In this document: positions 18,691 through 64,000 of the stretch, one piece after another
Layout of the letters: each line of letters opens with the position of its first letter
How positions within the stretch are numbered: position 1 is the first letter of the stretch
Origin: Psilocybe cubensis
Taxonomy: Eukaryota
Assembly: GCA_017499595.2 (NCBI GenBank)
Contig: CM039002.1
Span: 3,224,001-3,288,000 of the forward strand
Length of the DNA: 64,000 nucleotides
Direction of reading: 5' to 3'
Notes under the pieces: generated by a model
The model's input: only the letters and a program-made list of their open reading frames with translations
What the model was told of the DNA's origin: nothing
The model's database searches: none
Position numbers and translations under genes: made by a program

Positions 18691-18699
18691 ACCCCTCCA

Positions 18700-30784: not shown

Positions 30785-31698
30785 GCGTGGCAGGCACAAC
30801 GCGACGAGGAGGTTGCCAGGGCCGAGGAACACACTCGCCTTGATATGGAAGCGGCGGACCAAGCCGCGCAGCTTCTCAAACAGGATGCAGATGCTGCCCA
30901 TCTGGAGGAAGTGAAAAAGAACCGTGCAAAGTTCTGCCCGGTCCTTGATCACCCTATTCCGGTCAACCTCCCGGTCGTAATCAACCCTGCCGCGCTTCGT
31001 CGTCTAGACGCCGCCAAGTACGGGCGTCACAGACGCCCGTGCTAGCGCCCACGCTGCAACTTCAGACGAGTCCATGTCCATTGTCTGGAAGTCCGGAGTG
31101 GCCTCTTTTGTTCCGTCTCTGGTAACAAAGGACTCACGCAATACTATTCCGGACAAGGATTTGACGTGGGAGGATTTTCACGTCACTACTGCCAGGTTCA
31201 TCACTGCGATTCGCCGTGCCGGGTGGCCGCCCGAGCGTGTTCTCATGTTCATTGGGTTTTTTGAGGGCATCAAGAACCACTCTTCCCGCTTTGACCCTGG
31301 TCGCCTCAATTGCCTTGCACTTTTCACCTACCAGGAAAGCATCCGCAAGGATTGGCACATTTCTATTGCCTCAGGCAAAGGAGGTTGGGACCTAGCAAGC
31401 TTTAGTGAAGAGCTTTACAGGAAAATCAAGGCAAAAGTCATAGATGACGACCGTGAAGCCAAGGATGCGCAATATGATCTTGCAAGGGTGCGTAGTCTGT
31501 CTTGTTTTTTTTTCAGTCCATCCGCGCAAATACTAATCCTCCTTTATTTTCTATTCTGTTTCGCACCCATTCTCATGCATGTTGCTTTATGTCCCGCCCT
31601 GCTTTTGCTTTCCCACTTGCTGTTTTACCCACCACCGCTTTACTCCCATCGCTTTATCAAACGGCCCTCCGCTTGCCAATCATGCACGCCGCTTTTTT

Positions 31699-31740
31699 GC
31701 TTTACGCTTTACGCTTTACGCTTTACGCTTTACGCTTTAC
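31699..31740 (+). repeat. Heptanucleotide microsatellite (GCTTTAC)x6
   Basis: Direct reading of the sequence. Confidence 0.95.
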
Positions 31741-31948
31741 ATCTTCACTTGCGTTTGCTCGCCATTGTCTTCTTTCAACTTTCGGCTGGTTCAGTCCAAG
31801 GCGCTGGCAAAATTGGGTGGGCCGCATGACAGAGCAGACACTTACCGGTTGGGTTGCTCTGCCCAACCTCATGCCCGTGCAGACAGTCCTCCTCGCAATC
31901 ATCGTGACTTGAAGCGTCGCCAATCGCCCTCTCCCTACCGCCAACTAC

Positions 31949-34165: not shown

Positions 34166-34175
34166 GAGCCGACTA

Positions 34176-35480
34176 ATGCGCGGCTCTTCGTCGACGAGCT
34201 TGAGTTGTATCGCCCACACTGGGAGGACCGTGCTGGGTAACCCTGTTATACCACGTCGGTCACACGCTTTTCTCCTCTCCCCCCTGTGCCCCACCTCTGC
34301 CACTGACTCCCCTTCTCGACGTCGGGCACGACCATACCGTCCAGATCTTACACCATTTCCATCCCCGCTTTGCCCACACTGCCCTGCTGCAGACCGCCTG
34401 CTCAAATGGGTCCCAGCAACATCGCAAACTGCCTCTGATGCTGCGGGTCATGCTGTTCCACTGTCTGAAGGTGATCTGGAGCGTGTCCTCACTGTTCTTG
34501 GCGCTCGCTACACAGAGGGAACCAGCAGTGCATACGGCAGCGCCTTACTGGTCTTTCATGTTTGGTGTGACCTTCGTGAGGTTCCCGAGGAACAGCGGTG
34601 CCCTGTAAGCAACATCCTCCTTCTTGCATTTCTGTCTTCGTGCGCAGGAATGTATTCTGGGGCACAGGTCACCAATTATGTTCTATGGTGTTCGCGCGTG
34701 GCACACGCTTCATGGACACCCACTTGTATACAACAAGCTTGAAGTCGATGCAGCCCTTGCTGCTGGCGAGAAACTTGCATCCCGCTCATCTCGCCGTCCC
34801 AAGCGCGCACCCTTCACTCCTTCTATCATTGAGTCCATACGAACTCACCTTGATCTTGCCGTTCCACTTGACGCTGCAGTCTTTGCTTGCCTGACGTCAA
34901 CCTTTTGGTCAGCCGCACGCCTAGGCAAATTCACAGTTCGTAACCTCTCTTCCTTCGACCCCGGTGCTCATGTGAAGAGGTCAAACATTTCTCATGCTAC
35001 TGACCGTGCTGGTAATGCAACAACCGTCTTCTTCATCCCGCGCACAAAGTGTGCCCCTGCGGAGGGCGAAGAGGTCTACTGGGCCCGCCAGGATGGCCCG
35101 TCCGACCCCGAAGCTGCCCTTGCAAACCACTTCATGGTCAATTTCCCACTCGATGATGAGTTTCTTTTCTCTTATACACATGCAACGTCTGGCAAGCGGC
35201 GACCACTCACGAGGACCGCCTTTTTGGACCGCATCAAGAAGGCTGCTCTAGCTGCGGGTCTTGAACCGCTACATGGGCATGGCCTGCACATTGGTGCCGT
35301 GTTGGAGTATTTACTCCGCGGTGTCCCTTTCGAGGTTGTAAAGGTGCTGGGCCGCTGGTCTAGCAAAGCGTTTGCCAACTATCTCCGCCAACACGCAAAA
35401 GTCCTGTTGCCTTACATTCAGAATTCCGCTTGTTTTTTGGAATTTAATTGCATTACGCTCAATATTCCGCCTGTGCACTC
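34176..35480 (+). pseudogene. Ngaro tyrosine recombinase, frameshifted (~34680)
   Basis: SAM-like N-part (YGSALLVFHVWCD). Catalytic motifs FWSAARLG, PRTKC, HGHGLHIG (HxxR with R>H), GRWSS.AF..YLR. Confidence 0.9.
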
Positions 35481-36110
35481 ACTTTGGACTCTTCCACAAA
35501 CTCATGGAGTATTCCCTCGCATTTCGAGTTGGTTGCACCATCCAAATCTGCGAGTGTCAGTGTCTTGCACAGCGTGTCCACACGCGCACAGATTTTGGTA
35601 GTGCTCCCCACCCAAACCCTGATATCATTGACATCAGGTTACTAGCTATATACAATCATTACTTACTCACTCTCCTTTGCATATCTACACGTAACACGAG
35701 ATCCTCTCGCTCCTCATCTCTGTTCACCTGCTAAAGACACATAGTTTATGTTCAACGTGAAGTATAACGAAGTGTTACAATCGCAGAATGGCTACTATGT
35801 GCTGAGTCAGCGGGTGAGATCAACACCGCTTTCCCTCTCACCACATAGACGAAGCACCACATACAGACGCATCCACCCTCAGAGCGTCAAAGAAAATTTT
35901 CTTTCCCCACCCACCATCCCTTTGCACACCTTTTTGGAGTCACTCGACGTGTCTTGGGTATCACTCCTTCCACAGTCTGGGGGTCCTTGCTCACTTTGGA
36001 CTCTTCCACAGACTCACGGAGTATTCCCTCGCATTTTGAGTTGGTTGCACCATCCAAATCTGCAAGTGTCAGTGGGAAATATTATGCAAGTATCCGCGGA
36101 TTTTCATTTA

Positions 36111-36778
36111 CACGTTAGGATTTTCCGAATGTAAAACTAACTTGTACGGAAGACTCATATCTTGCACAAATAGTCCAAGTAGAACTCCGAGTAGAAATTT
36201 CTCTTACATTTTGAATAAAAGATGAACTTTAAAGTTGTCTTATACATTAAGTACCAGATCAAGGTGTCAGAATGAACTCCAGTCTGAGTATAAATCAAAC
36301 TGTAAGAAATGCTTGTATGTTAACTGGAAGAAAAAATACGAGAAGTTTTTCCTGGAAGACACGCTGCAAGGTTATTAGTCAGATGATGTAGCGTAATTAT
36401 CTACCCGGGTTAGCTGGAAATTAATCTTATATGTTAATATCAGGGCCAAAATCAAAATATAAGACTGATTTCCAGCTAAATCGGGTAGATAATTACGCTA
36501 CATCATCTGACTAATAACCTTGCAGCATGTCTTCCAGGAAAAACTTCTCGTATTTTTTCTTCCAGTTAACATACAAGCATTTCTTACAGTTTGATTTACA
36601 CTCAAACTGGAGTTCATTCTGACACCTTGATCTGGTACTTAATGTATAAGACAACTTTAAAGTTCATCTTTTATTCAAAATGTAAGAGAAATTTCTACTT
36701 GGAGTTCTACTTGGACTATCTGTGCAAGATACGAGTCTTCTGTACAAGTTAGTTTTACATTCGGAAAATCCCGACGTG
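36111..36778. mobile_element. Foldback MITE, 668 bp, almost wholly palindromic
   Basis: Arms ~36111-36437 and ~36450-36778 are reverse complements with scattered substitutions, mostly transitions. Termini CACG...CGTG; flanked by TTA on both sides (36108-36110, 36779-36781). Confidence 0.92.
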
Positions 36779-37114
36779 TTATTGCAGCTCCGCACATAAA
36801 AAATCTGCAATCTACTGCCGGATTGACGGCTGACACATCCATCAATCATTACGCGTCTCTAACCAGAGGTTACGAGGCTTCTCTTTGGAAGACTCATTAT
36901 TTATAGCCTCTCCCCCCTGCCAAATTTCCACCGGTCATAACGTTTATGCAGCCGGCATTTGCCGCGGTTTAAAGTTAAAAGAAGTAAAATGGATTCCAAC
37001 ACAAGTGAGTAAACTTCTTTTAACTTTAAACTGGAGTGGTATTATTCTTTGTAACGTATACTAAACTATTATACTGGATTATACTCTAACTGTAGTGTAT
37101 ACTTAGTATGCCCC

Positions 37115-37751
37115 TATGATATGATATTGAGGGAAAAGAAGAAGTCATAAGTCAGAGATCGGCGTATGTACTCAACACTTTAGGATAGGGTGCCCCGACT
37201 GATGGCAAAAATAGGCACGCGTAATGGCGGTGATCTCATCATATTCTTGGGATATGATGAGGTCATGGCGGTGACATCAGCATTTTCCTGACCTCAACAT
37301 TTTCCTGGGGTATGCTGGTAGAACCAGGGAGGGTTCTTGCGAGGGAACACCCCAACCAACACATGAGGTATCAGCAGGGTGTGTGCAAAGGCTCAAGCCG
37401 GGGGAAGTTGTATGTACGGAATGCACTATGTAGTAAACGAGCATGGACACAAATAATAGGCCAAACTCTCATCTTCGACGACTTTGTTAGTTAGGAAAGG
37501 AATAGAGACGATGTGAAAACGAGGAGTTTCAAGTCTCTTGTCCAGTCGTCACCAGCTAATGCTAAGGCTAGTACTTGGTAATATGCTGATGTCACACCCA
37601 TGACCTCATCATATTTCTGGGATATGATGAGGTCACCGCCATTACGCGTGCCTATTTTTGCCATCAGTTGGGGCGCCCTACCCTAAAGTGTTGAGTACAT
37701 ACACCAATCTCTGACTTATGACTTCTTCTTTTCCCTCAACGTCATATCATA
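37115..37751. mobile_element. MITE with ~170-bp TIRs
   Basis: 37115-~37285 is the reverse complement of ~37582-37751. Ends TATGATATGA...TCATATCATA (possible TA TSD). Each TIR holds an internal hairpin CTCATCATAT..ATATGATGAG. Confidence 0.88.
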
Positions 37752-37879
37752 AGTGTGTATATACAAAGGTTTCAGTGGTGATATAAATAAATTGAGAGTG
37801 TAAGAAATACGAATGTTAAAATAGTGAAGCCCAGAAACAAAAAAAAAACTAATTTGAATATGCTTGGTGCTTAGTTTCC

Positions 37880-40800
37880 ATGCAAAAAAACCCATTCCTT
37901 GACATTGAGGCGGGAGTGGTGGGAGAAGATTCGGAGGAAAACCAGAGCAATAATGGTCAGCCTAACGCAGAAACCTGTATACCTATTTATATATTGACTT
38001 GCGCAGATGAACCCAGTCTGGAAGAGATTACCGCAGACAATATAAATGTTCACAGAAATGTTCACCGCCAAACCAAAATGGCCGAGACAGAGCGATCACA
38101 CTGGGAGTCGTTCCTTGTACGGGCGCAAGAGAAGTCCCAACAATATAATGAATTCCCTAAACCAACCTGGAACTAGAAAACATGATGGGGAAAATGGAGA
38201 TGTACGCGTATCTAGTAAGCTTAGTTCCGAGAAAGTACACGTTAAGAAGACCAAGTGAAAACATATGTCTCATTACAGTTACACCTTCAGAAGTTGAGGC
38301 GCAATACCAGCCACAGCACATACTTTCAAAGGTATCCAAGGACCTTGGCAAGGACATTTTCTTCTGGACTCCAAAGAGTATGCACCTCATGGGCAGTGAG
38401 TAAGAGGTGTGGCCAGTATCGCAAGTATGTCGGCTGATACTTATTGTAGGGTTGAACCATAATGTCACACCAATCAACAGCAGGATTCTGCATCTTTGGG
38501 CCACTCTTCTTGATTTAAGAAAGGAACGCCGCATCAAGTTTGAGGTATTCCCAGTGACAGTGAAAAGAATTCCTACCGGAATCTTCCACCACAAACAATA
38601 TCGCAGTAGAGAGAACATACCGGAGATGTTGACTGATGCGCTGCTCCCTGGGGATTATGATTTCCATGTTTTTGGTGGTGTGTATCTTGCATATGGTATT
38701 GTATACGTACTCAAAGGATATTTAATTTGCAGAGAAAAAAATACCTCCTTTTTATCCGACCTTTAACATTCCATCTTTTAAGAGAGTCAAATATTTAACC
38801 ACACTTCCAAAGGAAGAAGCAGTCTTGATTTACACCGCCAGTCCAGACAAAGTGTTCATGGTAAGCAATATCCCCCAATGACAAATTCTAGGAAATACTT
38901 GACATGTTTAATAGTTTGACGTACCTGACAATGTCCAGAAGCATGTTCTCTAAAGAGATCACGGTCAATGTGTAGTTACTGGCATTTCAGGAGACGATGT
39001 AGTTACTGTCGTATGGGCAGTTCCACCTCCATTAATTTATGCAGTAAGGGATCTGATTTGTCATTCTTTGACCTTGGGTACTAATTCCATATAACAAGAT
39101 GAAGTATGTAGAAGGCGGACGCATATACAGCGCAATGGGGGAACTCTACAAATCAATTAATGCTATCACGCTTCGCAAGGACCTGGCCAATGCTTTTCTT
39201 GATGGAGATTTCGGCATCGATGTAGATGTCTGTGCTTGATATGCCTAATTTCTTCAAGACTTTACTTACTGTGAATAACATTTGCAGGACAATTACCGAG
39301 TTGTGATACTCCATAATTTCGGACCAGAGGCGCAGTCGCTCATTGGAACCAACATCCAAGCTTACTTCTGTCAACCCGGCACTAAGGATCGATTTGAAGG
39401 ACCTATGGACATATTTCTCTGTGCTCACTTTGCTAATTGCCTTTTTGTCAACTTTCAAGACGGTGATATTGGTGATCAATACCCAATGCACGTTGTCGGT
39501 GAAAGAAGTAACCGACTTGGGCTTTCTTTGGGTGAATCGCGTATTTCACGTTGAAGATCGAAGTTTGTGATTGGTTATAAACTATATGTAATCCAACAAA
39601 CACAAACCCCAGGGAAAGAGTGGTCCAGACTGGATAGGACGAAACCTTCTCCTAAGTTTCTTAAGGGAGGACGCTGCCTAGGATTTAAGTAGATTAGGAT
39701 GGTGTGGATTGTGAAGGGTAACAAAAGCGAAATAGTAAGAAGAGGATAACCGGGTTGTCTGGGTACGATAGTAAATAAGCCTTCCGAAAATGGGATAGAA
39801 CCATGGAATTGGATGGCGGGTGTATATGGAAAGCGTGAAGAAGATGTGTAGAATGTGTATGAGAAATCAATAAATGTGAATCTTAGAGGGGTTGTCTGAA
39901 GTGAGTGGGGAATGTTCCGAGGGGAGATGAGGAGATGACTAGGAGTTGGAATGTCATTAAATGGCTGAATCTTGATAAGCGGATGGTAAAGGCGAAAGTG
40001 TCCTTAAATTGACAATCTTTCTGACGCTTGGAATGAAGCTATACGTCGCGGGAGTATCGACTGAATTGAGGGTGAAAGACTAAGTCTGTCTCGAATGAAA
40101 TCACTCCAGATGAGTTGACGGAGGGAAAGGATGTCTTGAATACACTCCTAACGGCGATGGTTGGAAGGTGTAGAAGGACTAGGAGCGGTGACGGATTGAA
40201 TGGAGGAGGAGAAGTAGGGAAGTACTGGATGTCTGGATAGAAGTTGGATATTCAATGCTGAGAAGAAGAGGCGTTGGATGAGAAGGATGACTGGTCTCGG
40301 ATGAAATCCTCTCTTAATGGAAAGTGAGATGACTTCGGATGAATGGAAGTAAACTTGGTCTCGATGGAGGGTGGAACTGATGACTGAATTGGACTTGGGT
40401 TTGGGCTTGGCTTGAACTTGAACTTGGAATTGAAATGAATCGATGTGGATTGACTTGAAATTGACTTGACTTGGATGAAAATTGACTTGCTTTGAAGAAA
40501 GTGGGGACTGGGTGTAACTTTCCTGTCATTTCGTGTAATTCTACTACAGCTTTTATACTAAAAGCTACGTGAACGAAATACCAATCTGAGCTACTGAAAA
40601 CCGAGTCATATACTGTACAACGTGTCAAGAATGAGGCTACGCAAGTGTAACAATAAGCAAGAACAATAAGACATGTCAATATCGACACAACGACAGATAA
40701 GAAATGAATAGGATGAGTAAGAAAGAAGTGTATGACAAAGGTGAATGGTAATACAGATTAGATAAAAGAAGCAAGGATGACTCAGAAAGCATAGAAGATT

Positions 40801-41328
40801 GGTAAGACAAAGACAATAAAAGCGCAACAGACAATAGAAAAGATATAAATAAACACAAAAGGATGAGTAAGACAAACCAAAAATAAGTTGGAATGAGTAA
40901 TCCGCAGCCTGACGCTGAGTAAGACCATTGAATTGATAAAAATAAAGTTGAAAGTCCGGCTGTGCAAGGCAGTGTAGAAAGCTGTGCAGTTTGATGGTTG
41001 ACTGATCCGTCGCATAGCCTTGATGATCCGACGAAGTGACATGATCCGGAATAACGTGGCTCCCATGTGACAAGTGTTGATAAGATAAGACGTGTGGATG
41101 ACTTATGGAAAGAATGACTGCTTGGGTTGAGGGCGTCGTGTGTAGATCCAAAATGAACATCTCATCTCCAATCAGGAGATTGGGGTATGATAACATCAGA
41201 GCAAATTGTGGAATGATGAATTGAGCCAGATTCTATATGAACACTGTTACAGAAGGCCCTTTGGTCCTCATCCAGACAACAGTGATTTGGAGTTTCAATA
41301 CAAGTTGGACTTGGACGAGGAGGGTTAG
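37880..41328 (+). pseudogene. HNH-like (HNH_2-type) nuclease-domain gene remnant interrupted by copy 2 of the 1.64-kb element
   Basis: RDHGQCVVTG (preceded by a premature TAA), SINAITLRKDL..AFLDGDFGIDV, FLCAHFANCL. Removing the insertion gives in-frame ...GESRISRQSKLWNDELSQIL...EEG* (stop 41326-41328). Whether the 5' ORFs at 37880-38400 belong to this gene is uncertain. Confidence 0.55.
39552..41192 (-). mobile_element. 1,641-bp non-coding insertion, probable solo LTR (copy 2, inverted)
   Basis: Reverse complement of 29146-30784 (spurious ORFs identical in the track). I noticed only a 2-bp indel and two CpG transitions. Flanks ACGT (39548-39551) and ACAT (41193-41196). Confidence 0.9.
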
Positions 41329-45551: not shown

Positions 45552-46114
45552 CAAGGGGGTGCCGGTGTTCAAAATTCGGACACCACCTAGGTAGGTAGGT
45601 TGGCCAATCAGCCCCAAAAAAAAAATGTACCATATTTTTTTTGTCCAATTTCTGAGGAATTTCACGGTCCAAAGTTGTCTGTAATCAAGTTTAGAGCATT
45701 TTGGACTGTATTTCATAGACAAATTATGTTTTTAAACAAACACAATGCTAATCTCGTTGAAATTCAGGTTAAAATCTTCATGATAGGTGGCCGGGCTTCA
45801 AATAACACAGATATTTGACCTGATTTTGACTGAGATCATTGATTTACCATCTGGACGCTGTCTCAAAGACATGGGTGTGTCACACATGTAAAGGGAGCAA
45901 ACGGGGTTGTTATTAGTTCTATAACTATTTATTTACACTTTGACCTGTCCGATGTTGGGAAATTGATGAAGTTCAATGTCTTGGCCCTTGGAAATTCCCA
46001 TTTTAGGCAATTTTGATTGTTATGTAATGGTTACAAGGTAGGTAGGTTGCCCAAATTACCTCGAAATAAAAAATATGAGGTCGTGTTTTTTTTTTGAACC
46101 CCGGCACCCCCTTG
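45552..46114. mobile_element. MITE, 563 bp, 8-bp TSD (hAT- or P-like)
   Basis: TIR CAAGGGGGTGCCGG / CCGGCACCCCCTTG; TSD AATGCGAG (45544-45551, 46115-46122). Removal restores transposase frame ...FIDKIYNASLQNGKL. Confidence 0.95.
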
Positions 46115-49039
46115 AATGCGAGTCTACAAAATGGTAAACTAACAAACAATGCTCTTTATCAACTACAGAATCCAGAAAAGGGCCCAGTCAATATCTCAGA
46201 TCCGGATACATGTCTTTCACTGGATCTTTTCATAGCCTGTGAAAATGCTTCCCAGCGGACCTATGGCAACATCCGACATTGTCTTATTCAGAGATTTCCA
46301 GAGCTTGACGGTACACTCTTGACATACGATGCTGTAAAGACTCTTACAGAAACTCTTACTGGGGTGGTTTCAATCTCTGACGACATGTGCATAAATTCTT
46401 GTCACGCATTTACTGGACCATTTTCCGATTTACAAAAATGCTATTACTGCTCGGAACCACAGATCCAAGCCCTTTGCCGTTCTAAAGAGGGGGAAATTGC
46501 AATGACCTATTATGATAAAAAAACTCGGAAAATTCTTAATATCCAAAAGGCAATTGCTGATGCGAATGGCAACATTGGCAATTTTGTTTACAAAGACTAT
46601 CTTTCTGGAAGTGACTATTTGGACCTTTTTGAAGACCAGAACCTTACTGAAAATAATACTACCGTTATCTTTTCGTTTGATGGAGCACAGCTATACCGAA
46701 ACAAGGGATCTGACACGTGGATAGCCGTCTGGATTATTTGTGAGTATAGCCCAACCACAAGATACAAAAAAAAACATGTTCTTCCTGCGGTTGTCATTCC
46801 TGGGCCCAATAAGCCTAAAAATTCCGATTCTTTTAGATTCAGATCCTTTCATCATCTCTCGGCTATTCAGCGCGAAAACAATGGCAAGGGTATTCGAGTC
46901 TGGAATGGCAACAAAAATACAGAAGTATTTTCACGGGTTATTCATCTCTTGACCACTGCGGATGCTGTTGGACTTACAGAAATGGATGGGCGGGTTGGGC
47001 ACCATGGTGCACAAGGATGTTGCATTGGATGCTCTATGAAAGGTCAACACAAACCATCAAGTGGCCATTACTTTGCAGTTCACTTACGACCGCTTAACGC
47101 AGTTGGAGAAGATTGCAGCCATGATGATTTTGACATCAAAAATGCAGCAAATATTATATGCAACTCACCCCAGGAATATCAAGATAAACTTTCTCAAATC
47201 ATCAATTCATGAGACCAGGCTGATTATAAAAGGAACCAAAAGCAAACCGGACTCTCTAAGCCATCGATAATTCAAGGACTCCAATACACAATTCCTTTAC
47301 CCATGTGCTTTTCTGTGGACCTAATGCACCTTTCCATCAACATTGGTGAACACTTAATTCCTCTGTGGCATGGAATTTTTAAATATGAAGCAACAGATAA
47401 CAATCTTACATTGAACTGGGCAACACTCACTGGAGAAACATGGCAGACACATGGAAAACTTGTTGCAAAAGCTATCTTGTACTTTCCATCATCATTTCAT
47501 TGCCCTCCTCATAATCCTGCCGAAAAAATCTCAAGTGGCTATAAAGCAACAGAATACTTTCATTATTTGTTTGGTCTTGGTCCAGCTTATTTCCGCATTT
47601 TTCTTCCAAGCATCTATTGGAAGAATTTTTGCAAATTAGTTTGTGGTATCTGAACCATGACTCAACAAAACATTAGTGGAAATCAAGTACGCAAAGCACA
47701 CTCATATCTTGTCCAATTTGTACAAAAATATGAAAACCTTTATTACCAGCGCCGTATGGATCGTCTTCATTTCTGCCAACCGTGGCTTCACACAATCCTT
47801 CACATAGGTCCAGAAATTAGCCGAATAGGTCCAGGAGCATATATTAGCCAGTATACAATGGAATGCGCAATTGGGGATCTGGGAAAGCAAATTTGCCAAC
47901 CTTTTAATCCATATGGAAATTTGTGTCAGATTTCTCTACAGCGTTGTCAAACTAATGCACTTCAATCCATGTATCCTGAACTCGACTCTACTGCCAAAGT
48001 TTCTGCGCCAATGTACTCACACGATAATGGCGATGGGTTTCTTTTTTTAGCTCCAAGGCAAAAAAGGCCATTAATGTTATGTGGTATTGAAAAGCAGATA
48101 ATCAAATTGAAGCTTCATATATCCACCCTTAGAAAGTGGGGAAGGCTTCACTTACACAATGGACAGGTTGCACAAAGTGTTTTTTCAGAAGGAAAAAGAC
48201 TATCTCCAAATACTCATATCACACAAAATCTCAAGGTATGTCCAAAATTTATACATTTAATACATTACAACTAACACAAACAAGCTTTTATTGAATGAAA
48301 AGATTGAATTTGCTGAAGCGCAGTTTTATTTTCAGCTCGTTGATCCCAACAACAGCAACAAATTTATACCGTATGCTCTTGTGTCTATATACGGACTCCT
48401 GGATCAGGATATGCTTGAGCAGTCTTCAAGAACACTATGGGCCTGCACCTATAGAGGCACTGAAGGATATCAAATTATTTTAATGTCTTCAATAATTTCC
48501 ATGGTTTCTATGCAGCCCCTTCCACCACGTCTTGGGGATCCCAAGAATCTTTGGTTTGTATTTGAAAAGTTGGGGTTAGATGACACAGAAATTAGTGGTT
48601 ATGTAGATCCAATTTTGTAGAATTATATAGAATACATTTCAGTTATAGACAAGTATTTTCTTGTGCTTTGCATTACCTGCCAGTGACCCAAAATATGTGT
48701 ATCCATGCATCTCGATCCCTGTCAAGTTCGCTTTCCCACGAATTTATAATATTTACTTAACAAGTACCAACCAAGAACATTTTCCTAACTTCACAATAGA
48801 ACAATAAAAGTAATAACTGGCATATTCTGACTTGTTCATGTACTGATAGTGTAGTCAAGCTATAGCAATGCATTCTGACGTGTATCCAAGCATCCGACTG
48901 CAATAACAATTCAGATATGATATACAACAATTGTGTGACTATAAACATGTGATTGGTGCAGCGAGACGTGTTGTGGTTGCCCTGCACCATTATTGCATTC
49001 CTCTTTACCTTTGTCTTTACCTTTCTATTCAATATTAAT

Positions 49040-51299: not shown

Positions 51300-54200
51300 A
51301 TGGCCGCTGCTCTTACTGGCGGAAGTAGCGCCATAAAAATTGGCAATATCGAACTTCTTGTTGGAGCTTCAAACTACAATGCTTGGCGTCGCGGAATGAC
51401 AATGTTCCTACGAACAAACAATTTATGGGGATACATCGAAGGAAATCTCAGAGCGCCAAATCCGAGGCACCACAACGCTCAACAACTCGCCCCTCACGTT
51501 CCACTCCAGGGTGCAACCAATGCACAAGAAGACGCCTACAATGCATGGAGTTTTAATGACATGAAGGCACGCTCTCTCATAGAACACCGAATCTCACCTG
51601 TGTCCCTGTCACTTCTCCCATACGAGAAGTACAAAACCGCACGCGAAGTCTGGGCTGCAATTAAGTTACTATATGCGCGTCAGGACACGGCCAGTCAATT
51701 CCTCATCAAGGATCGCCTGCACTCGTTGAAGCTGAAAGATCATAACAATCTCGACAACTACATCAGTGAATTTCAACGCGGTTGATCCAAACTCATCGAG
51801 ATGGGAGTGCCATACACCGAGTACGAAATGGTTCATGGCATTATTCGCGGCCTGCCAAATCATGGCTCCTGGCAGCATTTTCAAATGCTCCTGACACAGA
51901 ACATGGAGGATCATATTGCCCGACAGAGCGCTGCAAATCCAGATCCTCCTGACACTTTGCTGACAAGAACCATCTCACGTTTGACAGTTGAATGCGCCCG
52001 TTTGGCCTATAGGAATCCTTCCAGTCGCACAAATGGCCCGGGATCCGAGTACGTCAACCTCGTCAATGAAGCAACAGGTGTTCGCATACATGATAAAAAT
52101 CCGGATGGCGTGGCATGCACAGTCTGCAAATTACGGTCTCACGACGCGGCTCACTGTTTTGCGAAAGGCGGTGGCATGGAGGGCCAAGGCCCAAGGGGAA
52201 AAGGGAAGGAAAGAGCGAAAGCAAAAGACGTCGACAAAATATTAAAGGCTGAAGTCGCCGCTGCTGCTGTGACTGAAGTCGCTGCTGTCGTTGTGCCGAC
52301 TGCTTCAACGTCAACATACGTCTCGCCCTCTTTCTACCCAAACGACTTTCTCGGTGACTTGTCGTGTGCAACCATTGAAGAGGTCTCTTCAAACGCACCT
52401 TTAGATCTCACTGCCATGGCGTCAACCCTCGCAAACACAATCATTGATTCAGGCACTACTTCGCACTTAATCAAAGACCGCTCTTATTTCTGGTCCTATG
52501 AGCCAGATGCTGCACGCAATATGGTAACTGCAAACGCCGGCGTACTTCGCACCAAAGCACGAGGGACCTGCTATATGCGCGTCTCCCTCAATGCTCACTC
52601 CACTGTCGTCAAACTGAACGACTGCTTACATTCACCTGACGCAACACTCAACTTGCTGTCGCTAGGTCGAATTGTTGCGAAGAACAGCAAAATTGGCTTT
52701 GCCTCCGATGATGGTGTCTTCTCACTCATTCGCAAAAATCCGCACAGCGTTATCTACAAGAACAACATCATCAATAATCTTTTCTTCCTCAACGTCGAGT
52801 TCTTACCTCCATTGCCTGATTCTAACATGGTAGCAGCAACCTGTTGGCTTGCATTTGCCTCTAACCGGGCTTGCAAGGGCGGAAACCCTATGGGAGTCTG
52901 GACTTCTTAGTCACTACAGGCTAGATATCAAGTTCAGGGGGTGTGTTGACATATAACTCTCTATCTACCCATGGGTCATGTAGCTCAGTGGTAGAGCATT
53001 GGCATATATAGCTCATTCGCAAAAATCCGCACAGCGTTATCTACAAGAACAACATCACCAATAATCTTTTCTTCCTCAACGTCGAGTTCTTACCTCCATT
53101 GCCTACGCTTCCTCGAACTCTAATGCCAGAATCTGTAATGCCAGAAGTTGCATTATACGCCAAAGTCCCAGAAACCCTTGATCTGTGGCACCATTGCATG
53201 GGTCACATCAGGGAAGCTGCAACAAGGCGCCTCGTGCACTCCACAATAGGCGTTATCTTGCCTGCAGGAGATAAAATGGAAAGATGCGAACCTTGCATCA
53301 TTGGGAAGCATGCCAGGCACCCCACTCCCTCTTCCAAAACTCCCAAAGCGGACTGCCTTCTAGCAATTGTCTACGTCAACGGTTGTGGTCCTTTCCCTGT
53401 GTTGACCCCACACGGAAAGTTATACATGATTGTCTTCATGGATGATTGCTCCGACGCCATAAAGTACCACTTACTTGCCGACAAATCACAAGCGCTGGAT
53501 GCATATCTCATCACTAAACGCGCCTGGGAACGCAAGACTGGCAAATTACTCAAAGTCCTTTGTTTTGATCCTGCTGGAGAGTTTACCTCGAAAGCCTTTC
53601 TCAGTCAATTAGAAGCTGACGGCGTCATCGCAGACGTGATTCCTCATTCCGAGCACTGGAAGAATGGCAAAATGGAGCGTTGTTTGAGGACACTGCAAGG
53701 ACGGATGCTTGCAATGATTACTGCTGCTCAACTTCCACTCTGGTATTAGGGCGAAGCCGCTTTGTGCGCCGCCTACCTATGGAATCTTACTGTGATCTCT
53801 TCACTGCCTAAAGATGTCACTCCTTTTGAAATTTTCCAAGAGCGTAAGCCGAACATTTCGTACCTTCGTGTGTGGGGGTGCAGGTGTTTCGCGCATGTAC
53901 CGCTCGATCTTCAATCCAAACTCGGTGCAAAATCCATTGAATGCATTTTCATGGGTTATCCACCCTCTGGAAGAGGATACAGAGTACGTTGCCTGTCAAC
54001 TAATCATTTCTTCGACTCCGGGTCTGTTTATTTTGACGAGAACATACCATACAAAGCTCGACTGCAGATTTCGGAGGAAGAAATGGACTACTCTTCTTTC
54101 CCTTTCCCACAAAATGTCCACGATAGCGTGTCATCCCAATGTAATCAACGTGCGAGCCACTCAAAGTCCGTGTCTTCATCATCCGAACCCACAGCATCCC

Positions 54201-55140
54201 CAGACCCTGCGGTCATTCAGGCCTCACCGCAATCCACTGACTCTCTTCCCTCGTCACCTGAACCTGCTGTCTCCCCAGCTGAACAGGCGAGTCACGCACC
54301 TCCACCAGCAGCCAGTCTGCGAGAAACACGGAAACTTACCTCAGGCGGCGTCCGATGGAAAGAAACGGTAGAAGCGGCAAAAGTGCATCTAGAAAAATGC
54401 AGGGAAAATCGAGCTCTACGGCAGGCAGCCCGAGAGCGTGCAGCATTGCTAGCGGAGGTGGAGGTGATGTGTGTGGAGGAAGTTCGGGCGGAAGATGAAG
54501 AGTTTGTATGCCTCTGCAAAGACGCCATTGGTGCTGAGATTCCAGACATGTTCCCAGCTGTTGAAGGAAACGAACCTGTTGTGAAAATAGATGATCTGGC
54601 AGCCATGGTTGCTTCTCTGGATGTCGCCGATTATCTTCAGCGGGACGTCAACAGCTCTTTTGAAACGGCTTTCCTATCTGTTCAAAGCGACACAGCACGT
54701 AATCCAAAAGCACCGGGATATGACATGTCTATTCCCCCCGCAAATTTCTATGAGGCGATGAAGAGACCCAATGCGGAGGAGTGGCGGAAGGTGATGCTGA
54801 AGGAATTAGAGGATCTAAAGAAAATGGGAGTTTATGAGATTGTTTTCCTTCCGGAAGGCTGTCACTGCATTGGGAATCCTTGGGTACTCGAGTTCAAATC
54901 GCCGCCCGATGGAGGCCCTCTTGTTTATCGTGCAAGACTGGTTGCACAAGGGTTTTCACAGGTGCACATGGTTGATTATGACGCGGTGTTCGCACCTGTC
55001 GTCAAATCACCCTCAGTTCGCATGATTGCTGTCTTTGCAGCTGTCAACAACTGGGAACTCGAGTGCTTTGATGCAACTCGTGCTTTCCTGTGGGGCGACC
55101 TTGCGCGAGTCATTTATATGCGCTTTCCGAAAGGCTACAG
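51300..55140 (+). mobile_element. Ty1/Copia gag-pol, degenerate and 3'-truncated inside RT
   Basis: gag (LVGASNYNAW; CTVC...HDAAHC), protease (IIDSGTTSH), GAG-pre-integrase (LWHHCMGH, CEPC), integrase (VNGCGP, DPAGEF, NGKMER), RT start (YRARLVAQGFSQ, FDATRAFL, IYMRFPKGY). Stops at 51783 and 53747. No YVDD, RNase H or 3' LTR. Confidence 0.93.
52725..53104 (+). repeat. 93-bp direct duplication bracketing a 194-bp foreign insert within Copia pol
   Basis: 52725-52817 = 53012-53104 (1 mismatch); insert 52818-53011. Confidence 0.92.
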
Positions 55141-56170
55141 CTCCATCGGCAAAAAGGACAAGATCCCCAAATGCCTTGCCAAGGCATTTGGAGGCGTCCA
55201 AAGGCCCCAAGGCCCAAATGGCCTTTTATATTGACTAATTAGAGACTCGGAAGTCTAAAAGACTCCGAATCCTTGATTCAAACCAAATGTTTTAGGTAGC
55301 TCTAAATATAACCCAATCATTTGGATAACCTTTGAGAGTCCCGAAAACATTTGGACAACATTTGAGAGACCCAAAATTTTAATTGGTTCACACACTAATG
55401 CTCGTATTTTATTCCTAGCAGCCACGTCAGGCAATCACACAATATAAATAGTAATCAAACGAGAAATTTCATTGAATAGGATTCTAATACAACAGAGGCT
55501 ACACAGAAACAATATGATTTGTGACTACACAGCCAACGGGCAAGCGTGTGAAAAGGTTACCATAACTCGCATAATTTGATTGAAGAAGATCTAGAACGAT
55601 TGAATCATAGTAAGCAAAATGTAAAATATATGCGTGTCAAATGCACATATATGCGCATATACTCACATTTAAGTTAACAGAAATGGCTGTATAGTCATTC
55701 AAGGTACTGGTAGAGGAAATGGAACTTGGTTAGTTGGAGTTGCCCAATGAGACAAGTACATCATAAAAAGTGCGGGTAGATTACAAAGCATTGTAAACCC
55801 AATTAAATATTTTTTTATTCGAAATTCTCACACTGCGTTACAACCCTCTTGAAATGTTGTGAGAAACCGGAAATATTGCAGTGTGAATAAATTAATTTGA
55901 GGTTTACAATATTTTTGGGTATTGCAATATGAAAGAATAAGCGGCTAGTTTATAATCTCAACAAATTACTGTATGAGATGACAAGGAATCAAGAGCGTTA
56001 TAAAACATTGCGAGAATTTATTGGGTTTCTCAATGATAAGGAGGATTGAATGGGATTTTGAGGCACCCAGAAGATTATAATAGAACAAATTTATTTATTC
56101 AGTAATAAAAGTACAGGCATGGTATGTAAAGCAGGGCAGAGCAGAGCAATAATTACAGCAATGAGAGACA

Positions 56171-58306: not shown

Positions 58307-58539
58307 GGTGGTGGATGGTGGTGGTACGGGAAGAAAAGGGATGAAAAAAACTCCCTTCCGCATATACCGAGCGCAGTGGTTATGTAATGGACACCTGAGG
58401 AGGTACAGATGTCCGCGCTATTCCGCGCCATTGCCATAACTAGCGGGCGAAGGAGGCGCGATCGCCATTGACAGCGAGCTGTCAGAGGATAAAAATAGCC
58501 CACCGCGAATCACCATAGCCAGGAGGTAGACACCCAAGA

Positions 58540-59105
58540 CGCCCCAGGTATACCCGTGCGTTGAAGCTTGTGGCCAGGGCTTTCGACGACGAGAAGGGGT
58601 GTATACGCGCACCGAACGAACCCCCAGGTATCTCCGTGGGTTGAAGGGGGCTGGTAGTCCGTAGCAGCGACAGGAGCACCCTACAGAGTACAGAATTGCC
58701 ATAGTCAAGCAGCCGCACCCAACAAACCCTCAGGTATTTCCGTGGGTTGAAGGGTGTGAGCACCGACTTGACCAGCCTACAGACTACGGAATCACCATAG
58801 TCAGCAGACTGCCACCAAACTCCGAGACGAACAACCGCCAGACTACAGAAATACCATAGTCAAGCAGCCGCACCCAACGAACCCCCAGGTATTTCCGTGG
58901 GTTGAAGGGTGTGGGCACCGATTTGAGCAGCCTACAGACTACGGAATCACCGTAGTCAGCAGACTGCCACCCAACGAACCCCCAGGTATTTCCGTGGGTT
59001 GAAGGGTGTGGGCACCGACTTGAGCAGCCTACAGACTACGGAATCACCGTAGTCAGCAGACTGCCACCCAACGAACCCCCAGGTATTTCCGTGGGTTGAA
59101 GGGTG
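58540..59105. repeat. 97-bp-period tandem repeat with internal hairpin, in a divergent promoter region
   Basis: CAACGAACCCCCAGGTATTTCCGTGGGTTGAAGGG recurs at 58875, 58972 and 59069 (period 97), with degenerate copies upstream. Units contain GACTACGG-AATCA-CCGTAGTC. Confidence 0.9.
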
Positions 59106-59235
59106 GTAGTGGTGCGGAAGTCAACAGAGCCAACAAACGGAACCCTACCCAAATTCAGATTCCGCCTGATGGCAATTTCAAACTCCGACACGCGTGGTGA
59201 TCTCAACACGTTCCTGCGTCATTGGTTCTTCTTCG

Positions 59236-59431
59236 CTACCCAGGCTCATTGCTCGGGCAGCCTCACTACCCAGGCTCATTGCTCGGGCAGTACACGCAAA
59301 CTACCCAGGCTCATTGCTAGGGCAGAACGCGAGACACTACCCAGGCTCATTGCTTGGGCAGAACTCATAAACTATCCAGGCTCATTGCTAGGGCAGAACG
59401 CTTAAACTACCCAGGCTCATTGCCAGGGCAG
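59236..59431 (+). repeat. Hairpin array 1: 6 x 25-bp CTA(C/T)CCAGGCTCATTGCNNGGGCAG with 5-11-bp linkers
   Basis: Units start at 59236, 59266, 59301, 59337, 59372 and 59407. Confidence 0.95.
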
Positions 59432-59475
59432 TACGCACAGATAAATTGGAATTCCTGCTCCCCCGACTGTCCATA

Positions 59476-62400
59476 ATGCCCCCCGTATGTATCTTACAAT
59501 ATCGAGGTGTATTTGGTTGCTAATTCTACGTACAACAGACTACGCCCTCCTTTGACTGGTCCCAGGGCTCCGTCTTCCTACAAGACGGTATAATTTACTA
59601 CTCTCCCAATTGTAACCGACCAGTCCGTATCAAGGCCCCAGAGCGGAATCACCCCCACCCATTCCCCGAACGTGCAGAGCCAGATCCCACCTCTGTCAAG
59701 CATCCTGTCTGGTGGACAGACACCTTTGGGTGGATGTCCTTCATACCGCTCAACCCATCCTTTATCTCCGACCCCTTCGACACCTTTACCTGGCAGCCTG
59801 AGCTGGATGTAACTCCTAGCTATAATACTCCACCCGGTCCCACTCTCTACCAGCTCGAAATTCATACTATAAAGCATTGGCGGTTTAAGGAACAATGTTT
59901 ACTGGAAGCTGCGCACAAAATGAAGCTATGGTACCACGTACCAGCCAGTCAACCACCCCCGCCTTCCATCTTTAAATACGATGAGCCCTACACATCGAAA
60001 GAAGAAGCTTATCGCCAGATTAAATTGGCGCGAGATTGGTTTGCCGTATGGATGGGATTCTTTGCATATTTCGCTGCGTGTGCAAAGTATGACAAGTATT
60101 GTGCAGGAAAGATGGTGAGAGAACAGGGCGAGTTACTACCCCGATGGTATACCAGGCTGCTCGAGGAGGTTCCGATGCTACAGCGATCCTGGTTGGACGG
60201 GCTTTTAACATCGCCAGCGTGTGTATTCTCACCCGACACTCAGCGTGCAGGGATAGTTATTCCCTGGTATGAATATGACAATCGGAGGCCCGAGATACAG
60301 TTCTTCCTGGACCAGCAGATTCCTGTTTTCTTTCCGTGGTGTGCCATCGCAGAACAGGCCATCATAAACAACCCCACCCTTCGCTATCTTGAGCCTCCTG
60401 CAAACCTTGTTCGGGATGCCCTTGAGAAGTTTCTGAACCGATTCCCCAGTGTTCCTCTCGCTGGCCTAATCCTTAGGTCCTACTTTTGATTTCATGATCG
60501 CCCGCTGCACTCCACCAAACATATATTGAGAATGGAACACAGTACGTCGTTGGTCACGAAATATATGTATGAAAAATTTGCCTCGCAAACCGACAAGGTC
60601 AAGGCGGCTATGGAGGAGAACCAGGTGGAGGCCACGGTTGCAGAATTGAGGGAGATAGTAAGCCGAGCCATGGACATGGACCTCGCAGAGGCCGAGCGAG
60701 CCATAGCAAATCTCCCCACTCACGATTGGATGGACAAAGGTGACTACCACCGGAGAGGAGAGTTGTACGACCACGTCTCGATATTCTTGGAGAAACGCGA
60801 GAGAAACCAGCGCTTTATCATTGCGACTGAGACCGAGGACGCAAAGATCAAAAGGCTTCAAAGAGAGGAGGCCCTCCCGGGGTACAACACATCGGTCTAT
60901 AGGTGGAAAAGTGTCACAACGCCGGGGGGGGAAGGAATTATACATGCGAGTTCGCCTCCTTCGATCAAAGCACGAGAGACTGTTCGCAAAGGTGCCTCCC
61001 TCTCAACGAACATACAATGCAGTCTCAAACGAGTGGGACATTTTTGATGAAGTGGATTTGCCACGAAAATATCTGCAATTTGTGGACCCCCCTCCTAGGA
61101 AGGACGGTTATATCTACGACTATCCTATCCAAGCCGCCCGCATCAATCCCCAGTCCATCATCCCCGACAACGATGTACCCCGTGTGGAATCCGTTCCCGT
61201 CATCCCAGAACCCTGTGTAGACTCTTCCTCGGGTGGTGCGACTTCCCCTCATGAACCTCAGTACGAAACATTCCCCATGGACACGGAGGAATTTCAGGAG
61301 GGGCCTTCCCAGCCTCCGGTACATCGTCCAGAGCCGGGCCCCTCCACCATGGATACCGACACTGATGAAGCTTCGAAAATCCACGATTACGATTGGGACA
61401 CCGCCGACCTCATCTCCAACTTGCGATACAGCTATGGATTCGTAGCCTCTGTAGTCCCGAAGAAGGAGGATAAGACACCGGAAGGCTGGAAACACGCCTG
61501 TCAACACTTTGGGTTTAGGAAGGATGGGGCAGAACAGTTTGTCTCAAACACGGATCATCAACTCATCTGTCAGTTTCATGACGGTTTGATGGGGTCAACT
61601 GACCGTCCGCTCCCTCAAGACATTCACGATCTCCACCCGCAAAATTACCTATCCCTTCAAGTTTTAGGGAATCTCAGCCTCATCCATCGGCCCATCCCAA
61701 ATCTATTTGTTTTCGCTCATCACGACATACGTGCACCTCAGGAAGAGTCCGACAGAATGTCTGCTGATTGGAGTATTGGAGTCGAAACCCCAGAGGCTGC
61801 TTTATATGTCTTACGAGTCTTCCAGTCCCATCCTGGGCATACAGTTGTCAGTGTGGCACACAGACTTTTGTCCAAAGGAGTGCAGTTTCGAACTCTTGTC
61901 GGGCGTAAAAATGTGGTTCAGGTGCATCAACCCTACAAGGAAGTTACCTTTTACCGCAAAGTCAGCTACAAGTTTACCAACGACGACTATGAGTCCTCGA
62001 TGCTGGCCTGTCGGCAGATACTGGACCAACAACGCGGTCGTGCAGCGCTACTCATGGGTGGAATAGTAGGACGAATCGCCAAAGAGTATCTGAGCACAGA
62101 GTCTGTTCTCCAGGGCCCATCAGTGGAATTGCTGAGAAATGGACGCGGATATGTCGCTAATCCAGAGGCCGAGTTGCTGGCTTACTGCGATGACGGGCTT
62201 ACAGAACACGATATTGCGATTATTATCGGGTCGTATTCTCTCATGACGGGTAAGTGTTCACTACATTTAACTGATCGCTCTATTTAATGTCGTTTTTAGA
62301 TTTTAAAAATCAGGTCGGAGTCAAGTCTTGGTTTCCTCCCCCGGCGGTATGGAATGAAATCGACAGGAATGGGATAGGATGGCTGGAATGGACTGAACGC

Positions 62401-62586
62401 AACGAGTACTGGTACCAGACTAGGCTGGAATTAATTCGAAATGGCAAAGCGCAACCTTTAACGCTTCAAGACTGGAAGAGCCTTCTCAAAAATAAGCCAG
62501 TCCGTGTTCTAAGGGAATCGGTGCGAGCTCGATCAGCGGCATTTGTCCATGAACATATCCCCGTAACCAGGAATCCTCGTAGATAG
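59476..62586 (+). pseudogene. Large (~1000 aa) transposon-associated hypothetical protein with one premature stop and one frameshift
   Basis: ATG 59476, intron ~59485-59538, then a frame continuous into ORF 59734. TGA at 60487-60489 (probably CGA>TGA); frameshift in the G-run at ~60924; intron ~62250-62300. C-terminus RGRAALLMGGIVGRIA...GPS...DDGLT...SWFP...WTERNEYWY. Confidence 0.7.
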
Positions 62587-62917
62587 GTAGCACATTTTTC
62601 TTGTTTCTTCATTCACGGATCTACACCACTACTCACAGTCTATTTTTGCCTTCGTACATACTACAAAACAAATTTTATGTATACTATCTATATTTCTTCG
62701 TACAAACTATTGGTCAGATATCATGTATACCACGGAAAAAATTGTTTGGACCTGCATCGAAACATGTGTGAATCAATTCTGAGCCCAAAAAACATAAAAA
62801 AAACATGAGATTGCTTACAGTAAGCCGGTTAGGCCAATCAAAACTCCGCTAAGTTTTGAACTCCGACACCGCGCCCTATCACGCCTGAGGTTGATGTCTG
62901 CACTCTCCTTATTCGCT

Positions 62918-63214
62918 CTACCCAGGCTCATTGCTCGGGTCAGAACGAATCGGTGGCTCGCTATCCAGGCTCATTGCCGGGATAAGAGCTTCCTATCCAC
63001 TGTCCAGGCTCATTGCTAGGACAAGGATTTTCTACCCCCTATCCAGGCTCATTGCTGGGATAAGGGTGTCGTTCGCCTGCCCAGGCTCATTGCTTGGGCA
63101 AGGATATCCCCCCTATCCAGGCTCATTGCTGGGATAAGGGTATCGTTACTCTGCCCAGGCTCATTGCTTGGGCAAGGATTTTCTACTCCCTATCCAGGCT
63201 CATTGCGTGGATAG
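62918..63214 (+). repeat. Hairpin array 2: 8 units with invariant CCAGGCTCATTGC and covarying stems
   Basis: Stems ACCC/GGGT, TATCC/GGATA, TGTCC/GGACA, TGCCC/GGGCA and CTATCC/GGATAG around a 13-nt loop. Confidence 0.95.
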
Positions 63215-63237
63215 TTGTACTTCAGCAGGCCGTAATT

Positions 63238-64000
63238 ATGTCCGACGAAAAAAGACCCTGCTTAGGGTGCCATAAACTCTTCGTACCAGGTCGCTCCTTG
63301 AAGCAGCATACCAACAAATGTAAAAAATATCCTGCTGCAATGAGCAAGGTCCTGAAGGGGTTCCAGGAAAACTTCAGCAGGCAGAATCAGAACAGTAATG
63401 TTGCCAGTGGTTCTTCGCACCAGGCAACCCTTAATAATGAGCCCGGGCCTATGGACGTTGATGTCCATCATGAGTATCTCGATGTGGATATGGTACCACC
63501 TCCAATGCCCCCTGCGCCTCCACCTAAATCACCAACACCACCACCACATCCCCCGACACCACCACCTCCCATTGAACGGCCCAGAGGACTTCCTCCACGC
63601 GTTATTAGATTGCCACAGCGCTTCCAAGACGAGGTCCCACCCGAACCTCCTCTAATTATACCACCAGTCGTGGAGGAGGAACCACCTCAGCCTCAGGAAC
63701 CTCCATCTGTGGAGAGTCTGTATCGAACACCAATGAATGGCTATGGGATATTTCGAGAGTATACCTATGGTCCCCCTTCTATTACTCCTGACGAACATTT
63801 CACACTGTCATCAGTGTCCGATTCTCCAAATATTGCCAAAGACCCAGCCGACTCTTTGAGAAAGGCGTCAGAGGGAACACCAATGGCCCTACCTTCGGAT
63901 TGGTCCTTGGATTCTGAGCCAAAAGACGACAAGAGCTTGCTATTCAAAAATCGTTCTACTCAACTTATCATGTCTTGGTTTTACAACGGCCACGGTACTA
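63238..64000 (+). CDS. 5' part of a probable second Plavaka transposase (runs off the window; absent from the ORF track)
   Basis: Hand-translated open frame MSDEKRPCLGCHKLF...LKQHTNKC (C2HC finger), Pro-rich linker, IRLPQRFQD, YRTPMNGYGIFREY...PSITPD, FKNRSTQLIMSWFYNG. Resembles Plavaka N-termini; the catalytic core is not in the window. Confidence 0.65.
   Translation, partial: MSDEKRPCLGCHKLFVPGRSLKQHTNKCKKYPAAMSKVLKGFQENFSRQNQNSNVASGSSHQATLNNEPGPMDVDVHHEYLDVDMVPPPMPPAPPPKSPTPPPHPPTPPPPIERPRGLPPRVIRLPQRFQDEVPPEPPLIIPPVVEEEPPQPQEPPSVESLYRTPMNGYGIFREYTYGPPSITPDEHFTLSSVSDSPNIAKDPADSLRKASEGTPMALPSDWSLDSEPKDDKSLLFKNRSTQLIMSWFYNGHGT

Follow-up and report, generated by a model that had tools for sequence, protein, structure and literature searches.

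Here, we describe two arrays of a short, hairpin-capable repeat in a 64,000-nt stretch of the Psilocybe cubensis genome (contig CM039002.1 of assembly GCA_017499595.2, positions 3,224,001 to 3,288,000 of the forward strand; hereafter the window). The last 5.5 kb of the window hold the left part of a DNA transposon, to all appearances of the Plavaka (CACTA-like) type, and adjoin a host gene on the - strand that starts, going by the sequence, near 58306; the window stops before the right end of the element. From left to right, the element consists of subterminal tandem repeats, array 1, a first gene (gene 1), array 2, and the start of a second gene (gene 2), which is predicted to encode the transposase. 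The features on which the argument turns are as follows:

59180..59191, + strand, motif AAACTCCGACAC, 55 bp upstream of array 1, then a CT-rich tract (TTCTTCTTCG) adjoining the array
59236..59436, + strand, array 1, 6 units with core-to-core spacing of 30, 35, 36, 35 and 35
59476..62586, + strand, gene 1, with exon 1 at 59476-59484 and a 54-nt intron at 59485-59538
near 62250-62300, + strand, probable second intron of gene 1, from sequence
62858..62869, + strand, motif GAACTCCGACAC, 59 bp upstream of array 2 and followed by a CT-rich tract (CTCTCCTTATTCGCTCT)
62918..63214, + strand, array 2, 8 units with spacing of 43, 39, 39, 38, 36, 38 and 39
63238..64000, + strand, 5' part of gene 2 (predicted Plavaka transposase), cut by the window end

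The core AGGCTCATTGC occurs exactly 14 times in the window, always on the + strand and only within the two arrays (6 + 8 units), and every one of the 14 units reads CC-core-NN-GG. A first-pass annotation made from the letters alone had reported these units at these places, and both a motif scan and Tandem Repeats Finder (TRF), which delimits 59236-59436 (5.9 copies at period 35) and 62961-63213 (period 39, with 74 for a double unit), bear it out. Allowing up to one mismatch brings in a single further match in the window, an unrelated site at 7765 on the - strand, and 0 of 100 dinucleotide shuffles reach 15 core matches (shuffle mean 1.29). Aligned over 29 columns, the units give the consensus C-T-R-Y-C-C, A, G-G-C, T-C-A-T-T, G-C-Y, N, G-G-R-Y-A-(G/A). 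We built a covariance model from the 14 units; with filters off, its search of the 64 kb recovered all of them (E <= 6.4e-11) and found no convincing extra copy, the next matches having E >= 0.021 and several of these being the same units read backwards; nor did it find an independent - strand copy of the unit in the window. A coding repeat is ruled out, the spacings (30-43) being mostly not multiples of three.

The units differ in the arms that flank the core. In array 1 the arms are CTACCC/GGGCAG, with TACCC/GGGCA in five units and TATCC/GGGCA in one, and all six carry an A.C mismatch on the + strand that becomes G.U on the - strand. In array 2 they are TATCC/GGATA (four units), TGTCC/GGACA (one), TGCCC/GGGCA (two) and ACCC/GGGT (one). 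The array 2 arms agree with those listed in the first-pass annotation. The first unit of array 2 is of the array 1 type, including its right flank CAGAACG, while units 2-8 alternate TATCC/GGATA with TG(T/C)CC/GG(A/G)CA; units 4-5 and 6-7 arose by a recent duplication of a 74-bp double unit.

Set against this variation, the constancy of the core stands out. In whole-unit alignments, 0 of the 15 columns that make up CC, core and GG are variable, compared to 26 of the 28 other columns (Fisher 9e-10). Column 21, which lies between the core and the GG, takes all four bases almost equally (C3, A4, T4 and G3 of 14), so neutral positions are saturated, and meanwhile the core has remained fixed across two arrays that are 3.5 kb apart and whose spacers cannot be aligned. 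This is not an artefact of how the units were picked, since no degenerate copies exist according to either the scan at up to one mismatch or the covariance model. To us, this argues strongly that the core is constrained in its primary sequence and is presumably read by something. In addition, the site is asymmetric, since A9 and G10 never change but their mirror columns, 20 and 21, do, and a contiguous protein footprint would fit this better than a pure stem.

Could the arrays nonetheless be a neutral minisatellite, that is, a functionless product of slippage or unequal exchange in which exchange through the core has kept it fixed and template-switch repair has kept the arms symmetrical? Copy number does vary among the four sequencing runs that were compared at the locus (X5 and X10-X12). 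Runs X10-X12 carry the same insertion, including the host flank, at >= 99% identity and, being near-identical copies of the same locus, add no independent units; one X10 contig, however, joins 59353 to 59427, core to core, with the loss of two array 1 units. Run X5 holds a diverged paralogue (47 differences in 292 aligned letters) that keeps unit 1 and has 44 letters in place of the 205 letters of 59261-59465. Among the differences listed, two base changes fall inside array 1 (59294 and 59300), both in spacer. The recent 74-bp duplication also suits a minisatellite, and template switching can both generate hairpin stems and repair them, as has been documented (PMC8794818). A neutral minisatellite should, however, diverge evenly over its unit, contrary to the split between core and other columns given above, and homogenisation acting on arrays so far apart would have had to spare the spacers. 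Moreover, the two arrays share an upstream motif and take up equivalent positions before a gene start. On balance, we consider a neutral origin quite unlikely.

All 14 units can fold into one common hairpin. Its outer helix has 5-6 pairs and is separated by a 1x1 internal loop, with A opposite N, from an inner helix (GGC/GCY) that closes a UCAUU tip. The inner helix is paired in 13 of the 14 units. Thus the 13-nt stretch that had been described as an invariant loop is indeed invariant but is not all loop, its GGC pairing with GCY to leave UCAUU. On the given structure, 88% of cells pair and two of the nine pairs change on both sides, namely columns 5-25 (A-U 4, G-C 3, A.C 6) and columns 6-24 (C-G 8, U-A 4, U.G 1). 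The covariation score is reached by 0 of 500 column shuffles, slid registers pair far worse, and the left arms of array 2 match their own right arm better than the arms of other units (P=0.0012). When the own-arm test is run over the six distinct arm pairs, P rises to 0.083, and array 1 contributes mismatched arms only; the column shuffles, for their part, ignore the relatedness of tandem copies, and all units come from one locus. The arm haplotypes need at least two separate double changes and the TGTCC/GGACA arms are unique to one unit, and thus the covariation signal is real but small. Two-sided change in the stem, which the first-pass annotation took to be compensatory, is present at two positions, with few independent events behind it. 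A second, covarying helix had been proposed for units 2-4. Such a helix is present in units 1-4 and 6 (GGCTC/GAGCT, ATCC/GGAT and (T)ACCC/GGGT(G) in units 2-4), but a unit's own flanks do not pair significantly better than swapped ones (P=0.069 for array 2 and 0.093 for array 1).

Paired changes in the arms need not reflect selection. Template-switch correction of quasi-palindromes yields simultaneous complementary changes in both arms in one step and without selection (PMC8794818), and this weakens the earlier argument that compensatory change is unexpected under neutrality. Template switching would explain the paired arm changes and not the invariant, asymmetric core, and it is a mutational process rather than a functional class.

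Both arrays are directly upstream of, and oriented like, the genes of the element. As had been claimed, they close shortly before the ATGs at 59476 and 63238, with ~40-45 nt between array 1 and its ATG and 24 nt between array 2 and its own, and both start codons are backed by the N-termini of homologues. No ATG lies in the 304 and 341 nt before the two start codons (shuffle P 0.023 and 0.010). The gaps to the ATGs are so short that transcription must begin within or upstream of the arrays, unless the leaders are very short. Among the sequencing runs searched, none that is labelled RNA contains the stretch, and two with a doubtful RNA label have next to none of its words. A TATA-like ATAAAT at 59441 is probably not a promoter, as just 30 nt separate it from the supported ATG of gene 1. 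Further upstream, the two regions share the motif (A/G)AACTCCGACAC, 55 and 59 bp before arrays 1 and 2, respectively; its local alignment alone is not significant (score 23 versus a shuffle maximum of 25), and the argument rests on its matching position. CT-rich tracts often precede start sites in fungal promoters, and one follows the motif in both regions (about 59225 and 62910). Taken together, the shared motif, the CT-rich tracts and the matching type of the first units indicate that a whole control module was duplicated before both genes.

What, then, might the arrays do? One option is that they act as RNA. If transcription started at or upstream of the arrays, each mRNA would carry in its 5' leader six to eight hairpins with a fixed GGC-UCAUU-GCY tip, on which an RNA-binding protein of the element or the host could dock, or which could throttle ribosome scanning, so as to co-regulate both genes. 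The hairpin common to all units, the two two-sided pair changes and the own-arm result for array 2 all suit such a leader, as do the orientation of the units along the genes, the ATG-free stretches that end 24-45 nt from supported start codons, and the CT-rich tracts that abut the 5' edge of both arrays. Folded as RNA, array 2 is well ahead of shuffled sequence on the + strand (z-score -6.56). However, it is nearly as far ahead on the - strand (-5.86), and array 1 shows the opposite preference, with z-scores of -1.03 on the + strand, where 32 of 200 shuffles fold equally well, and -3.06 on the - strand. The structure is thus not favoured on the transcribed strand in all copies, and the - strand is the only one on which both arrays beat shuffles. 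The mean energy of the 25-nt hairpin behaves likewise (-8.5 for array 1 and -12.2 for array 2 on the + strand; -10.8 and -9.7 on the - strand), and G.U-type cells (11) are balanced by A.C-type cells (12) on the + strand, with the counts swapped on the - strand. As far as the sequence can tell, neither strand bears an RNA signature and the symmetry is that of a DNA palindrome. Further points against an RNA leader are the A.C mismatch in every unit of array 1, the loss of significance over the six distinct arm pairs and in the second helix, a shuffle control that ignores the kinship of tandem copies, and the absence of any Rfam match at E<=1 on either strand of 58400-64000, a check that the first-pass annotation had asked for. 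That annotation's central suggestion, of a selected RNA or single-stranded DNA structure serving as a 5' leader, is thus supported in part, through the hairpin that all units can form. We regard an RNA leader as unlikely, if still deserving of attention.

A second option is that the palindromes extrude from one DNA strand or from both while the element is transcribed, replicated or transposed and are recognised as single-stranded hairpins or cruciforms. The similar hairpin potential of the two strands would be expected in this case, as would arm changes that keep the palindrome in double-stranded terms and the finding that both arrays outdo shuffles on the - strand alone. There are also further palindromes in the neighbouring subterminal zone. 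We know of no recognition of single-stranded hairpins in the CMCT clade, and this counts against extrusion. In addition, arms of 5-9 bp with mismatches would be short for extrusion, and a palindrome close to the arrays (H_B, described below) decays by non-compensated G>A changes. Plavaka transposases, moreover, are described as DDE enzymes of the CMCT clade (PMC12730594). Recognition of an extruded form thus seems very unlikely. It would also be doubtful, though somewhat less so, that the arrays are multivalent hairpin platforms, either as 5'-leader RNA or as extruded single-stranded DNA, with the GGC-UCAUU-GCY tip read by the gene 1 protein. Were the hairpin rather than the duplex to be read, a eukaryotic DNA transposon would be under an unusual kind of control, and were the gene 1 protein its reader, a previously unknown protein-hairpin circuit would couple the two Plavaka genes, in a setting where the gene 1 family is large and fungus-wide.

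We therefore turn to protein-binding sites. Tentatively, and at a little short of an even chance, we favour the arrays being iterated protein-binding sites in the promoter or leader of both element genes. Four features together point towards sites that would control both genes: the core is fixed and asymmetric, neither strand is preferred, a promoter-proximal module has been duplicated, and the context is CACTA-like. The abundance of other palindromic subterminal repeats at the left end fits as well, as does the polymorphism of array 1, with its two listed base changes in spacer and its lost units joined core to core. In this proposal, the arrays would be tandem copies of a ~25-bp quasi-palindromic cis-element of a two-gene Plavaka (CACTA-like, CMCT-clade) transposon, in which the 13-nt core CCAGGCTCATTGC, plus the GG two bases on, would be kept unchanged by selection. 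The core would be read in a sequence-specific manner by a protein, which might be the product of gene 1, the zinc-finger N-terminus of the transposase, or a host factor. The arrays and the shared upstream motif would form the promoter-proximal or leader region of both genes, and one factor could switch the two genes together, as TnpA does in En/Spm by way of subterminal repeats that overlap its promoter. Hairpin potential would be a by-product of the palindromic build of the site, and the paired arm changes may reflect either mild selection for symmetry or extrusion, or template-switch correction of quasi-palindromes. Whatever probability remains after these protein-binding sites, an RNA leader, a neutral minisatellite and extruded DNA we leave to something else.

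Several observations weigh against protein-binding sites. A plain double-stranded DNA site does not predict two-sided arm changes, and these are seen in all eight units of array 2. All 14 cores have one orientation, whereas CACTA motifs occur in both. Array 2 is ~4.5 kb inside the element and so is not subterminal, and at least part of each array may be transcribed, which would make an RNA role possible. The whole-protein model of gene 1 has no recognisable nucleic-acid-binding fold, and the protein has no Pfam domain. Lastly, a second Plavaka gene in the window, at 14802-17660, has no hairpin array upstream of it.

In light of this proposal, what is known of the two genes? Gene 1 aligns along its entire length with P0004 (899 aa), the match being split between two frames (tblastn, 59542-62254), and its N-terminus, MPP-TTPSFDWSQGSVFLQDGIIYYSPN when read with the intron 59485-59538, fits the family consensus M-x7-D...YYSPN. 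The family is uncharacterised, its members are ~900 aa long, and it comprises 1541 representative clusters at E <= 0.001. Searches for a known relative gave little: none of 32 family members matches Pfam, comparison with a protein atlas returned no usable match, and a structure model (predicted local distance difference test, pLDDT, 76) had a best Foldseek E of 0.13 and a best VIA Z of 6.3, to generic four-helix bundles. The window's copy of gene 1 is interrupted by a stop codon (60487-60489), position 60487 being C in runs X5 and X10, and its homopolymer (a G run) near 60924 is one base longer than that of run X5; these differences are either the marks of a pseudogenised allele or assembly errors.

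Gene 2 begins with a zinc-finger-like C-X2-C-X12-H-X3-C motif, and its first 254 aa, the part inside the window, have no Pfam match alone. Three longer relatives were found, all three with PF18759: P0001 (100% identical, 1234 aa; PF18759 at E 5.5e-20), P0002 (82% identical; named in its source as a Psilocybe cubensis hypothetical protein) and P0003 (33% identical, from Agrocybe pediades), which has the same N-terminal C-X2-C-X12-H-X3-C motif. Because P0003 begins with this Cys/His motif, the ATG at 63238 is the likely start of gene 2, and not the annotated start at ~63341. Based on these homologues, we identify gene 2 as a Plavaka (CACTA-like) transposase gene, in agreement with its earlier description as a putative one. 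Plavaka is grouped with EnSpm/CACTA in the CMCT clade, and Plavaka transposases are DDE enzymes (PMC12730594). The second Plavaka transposase gene, at 14802-17660, is distant (PF18759 at E 2.4e-63, plus DUF6830 and an N-terminal Cys/His finger), was not reached by tblastn with P0001 and P0003, and is followed downstream by ~435-bp tandem repeats (18247-19267).

The first-pass annotation stated that no described element resembles these arrays. This overlooks the stem-loop-forming subterminal repeats of CACTA elements, in which reiterated motifs forming 14 stem-loops have been taken as TnpA-like binding sites (PMC2613891). Reiterated, hairpin-capable cis-repeats of CACTA-type transposons have long been known, and such arrays in Plavaka are a variation on them. 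One of the two closest precedents is En/Spm. Next to the promoter at the 5' end of this element, a short motif recurs within a few hundred bp, and it is bound by a second element protein (TnpA) that regulates expression and is needed for transposition (PMC2613891); Plavaka is placed in the same CMCT clade (PMC12730594). The En/Spm motif, however, is 12 bp long, and both ends carry it in direct as well as inverted copies, whereas the Psilocybe arrays have 14 direct cores in quasi-palindromic units, one of the arrays is internal and precedes a separately transcribed transposase gene, and binding is putative. In the other precedent, the soybean elements Tgmt* and Tgm1, short repeats near the element ends are described as "capable of forming" a series of stem-loops (14 in Tgmt*) and are read as TnpA-like sites (PMC2613891). 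There, conservation lies in the motif that makes up the stems and variation in the loops, unlike the Psilocybe arrays, in which the tip and the inner stem are conserved and the outer stems vary in pairs.

Resemblances outside the CACTA group are looser. The REP/BIME repeats of bacteria, with their RAYT transposases, are likewise arrays of hairpin-capable repeats beside a transposase-type gene, with both structure and sequence recognised; they are bacterial, however, depend on an HUH/Y1 single-strand transposase and are scattered genome-wide, whereas here the setting is eukaryotic, the transposase is a predicted DDE enzyme and there are only two promoter-proximal arrays. In the mouse LINE-1 5' untranslated region, tandem monomers of variable copy number directly upstream of the open reading frame (ORF) serve as promoter and leader. 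Unlike the Psilocybe units, these monomers lack any hairpin architecture, measure ~200 bp and are part of a retrotransposon, and the two have no sequence relation.

In the literature on Plavaka, basidiomycete subterminal stem-loops and Psilocybe repeats, we found no description of such arrays, although the Plavaka consensus sequences (PMC12730594, supplements and Figure S2) may show comparable repeats. The termini and target duplications of Plavaka were themselves described only in 2025, and the available part of that account holds nothing on cis-acting sequences (PMC12730594). A fixed 13-nt motif that is present 14 times before both genes of the element is a candidate site for switching the element on, for silencing it or for assembling the transposition complex. 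It also offers a handle on the function of the large and uncharacterised gene 1 family.

Outside the window, a metagenome scan for CC-core-NN-GG gave at least 119 stretches, and the 80 listed each have a single match. At up to two mismatches, 12 of the 119 have two or more sites, and the four of these that were inspected contain no array; we treat the matches as chance. A two-core pattern matched 13 stretches in prokaryote genomes and five in viral contigs, and all 18 are unrelated tandem repeats containing the 11-mer. In one of these, a contig from a sheep-gut Lachnospiraceae metagenome-assembled genome (L129, 3601-3719), four 36-nt tandem units have the same 11-mer with CC..TTGG flanks; this repeat is probably coding and its resemblance to the array unit coincidental.

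To the left of array 1, the element carries the following features:

58540..59116, + strand, left subterminal repeat zone, ~0.6 kb of 97/155-bp tandem units (TRF, repeat families and motif listing)
within the 58540..59116 zone, S motif (AACCC-CCAGGTATTTCCGT-GGGTT), 6 copies
within the 58540..59116 zone, palindrome with an 8-bp stem (GACTACGG-AATCA-CCGTAGTC), 5 copies

The presumed left end of the element, from the sequence and the alignment of the paralogue, is at ~58384-58433, with TGT at 58384 and 58411. Plavaka termini are given as TGT..ACA or CATCA..TGATG, with target duplications of 2-3 bp (PMC12730594). Array 1 begins ~0.8 kb from this presumed end, behind the other subterminal repeats. 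The palindrome with the 8-bp stem, H_B (58686-59054), is perfect in its two inner copies, while its three outer copies show G>A decay at CpG in both arms that is non-compensatory, in contrast to the paired changes of array 2. The S motif was considered as a distant relative of the array unit (CCCAGG...GGGT) and dropped, as the covariance model misses it and it aligns poorly by hand; what looked like a compensated change in the S copy at 58543 was dropped as well, since it requires a register shift.

Elsewhere in the window, 29159-41177 is a perfect 1631-nt inverted repeat, with arms that are 100% complementary and 8757 nt apart. It encloses a 750-aa ORF without a Pfam match and an ORF with a weak match, below the cut-off, to a tyrosine recombinase (PF00589, E 2.2e-5), and may be a DIRS/Crypton-type element or an assembly palindrome. 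Fragments of a Ty1/copia pol (Pol_BBD, SH3_retrovirus and RVT_2) lie at 51786-55234, and 46079-47212 has a weak match to a Tnp2/CACTA-type transposase (PF02992, E 9.9e-4); the region is thus rich in transposons.

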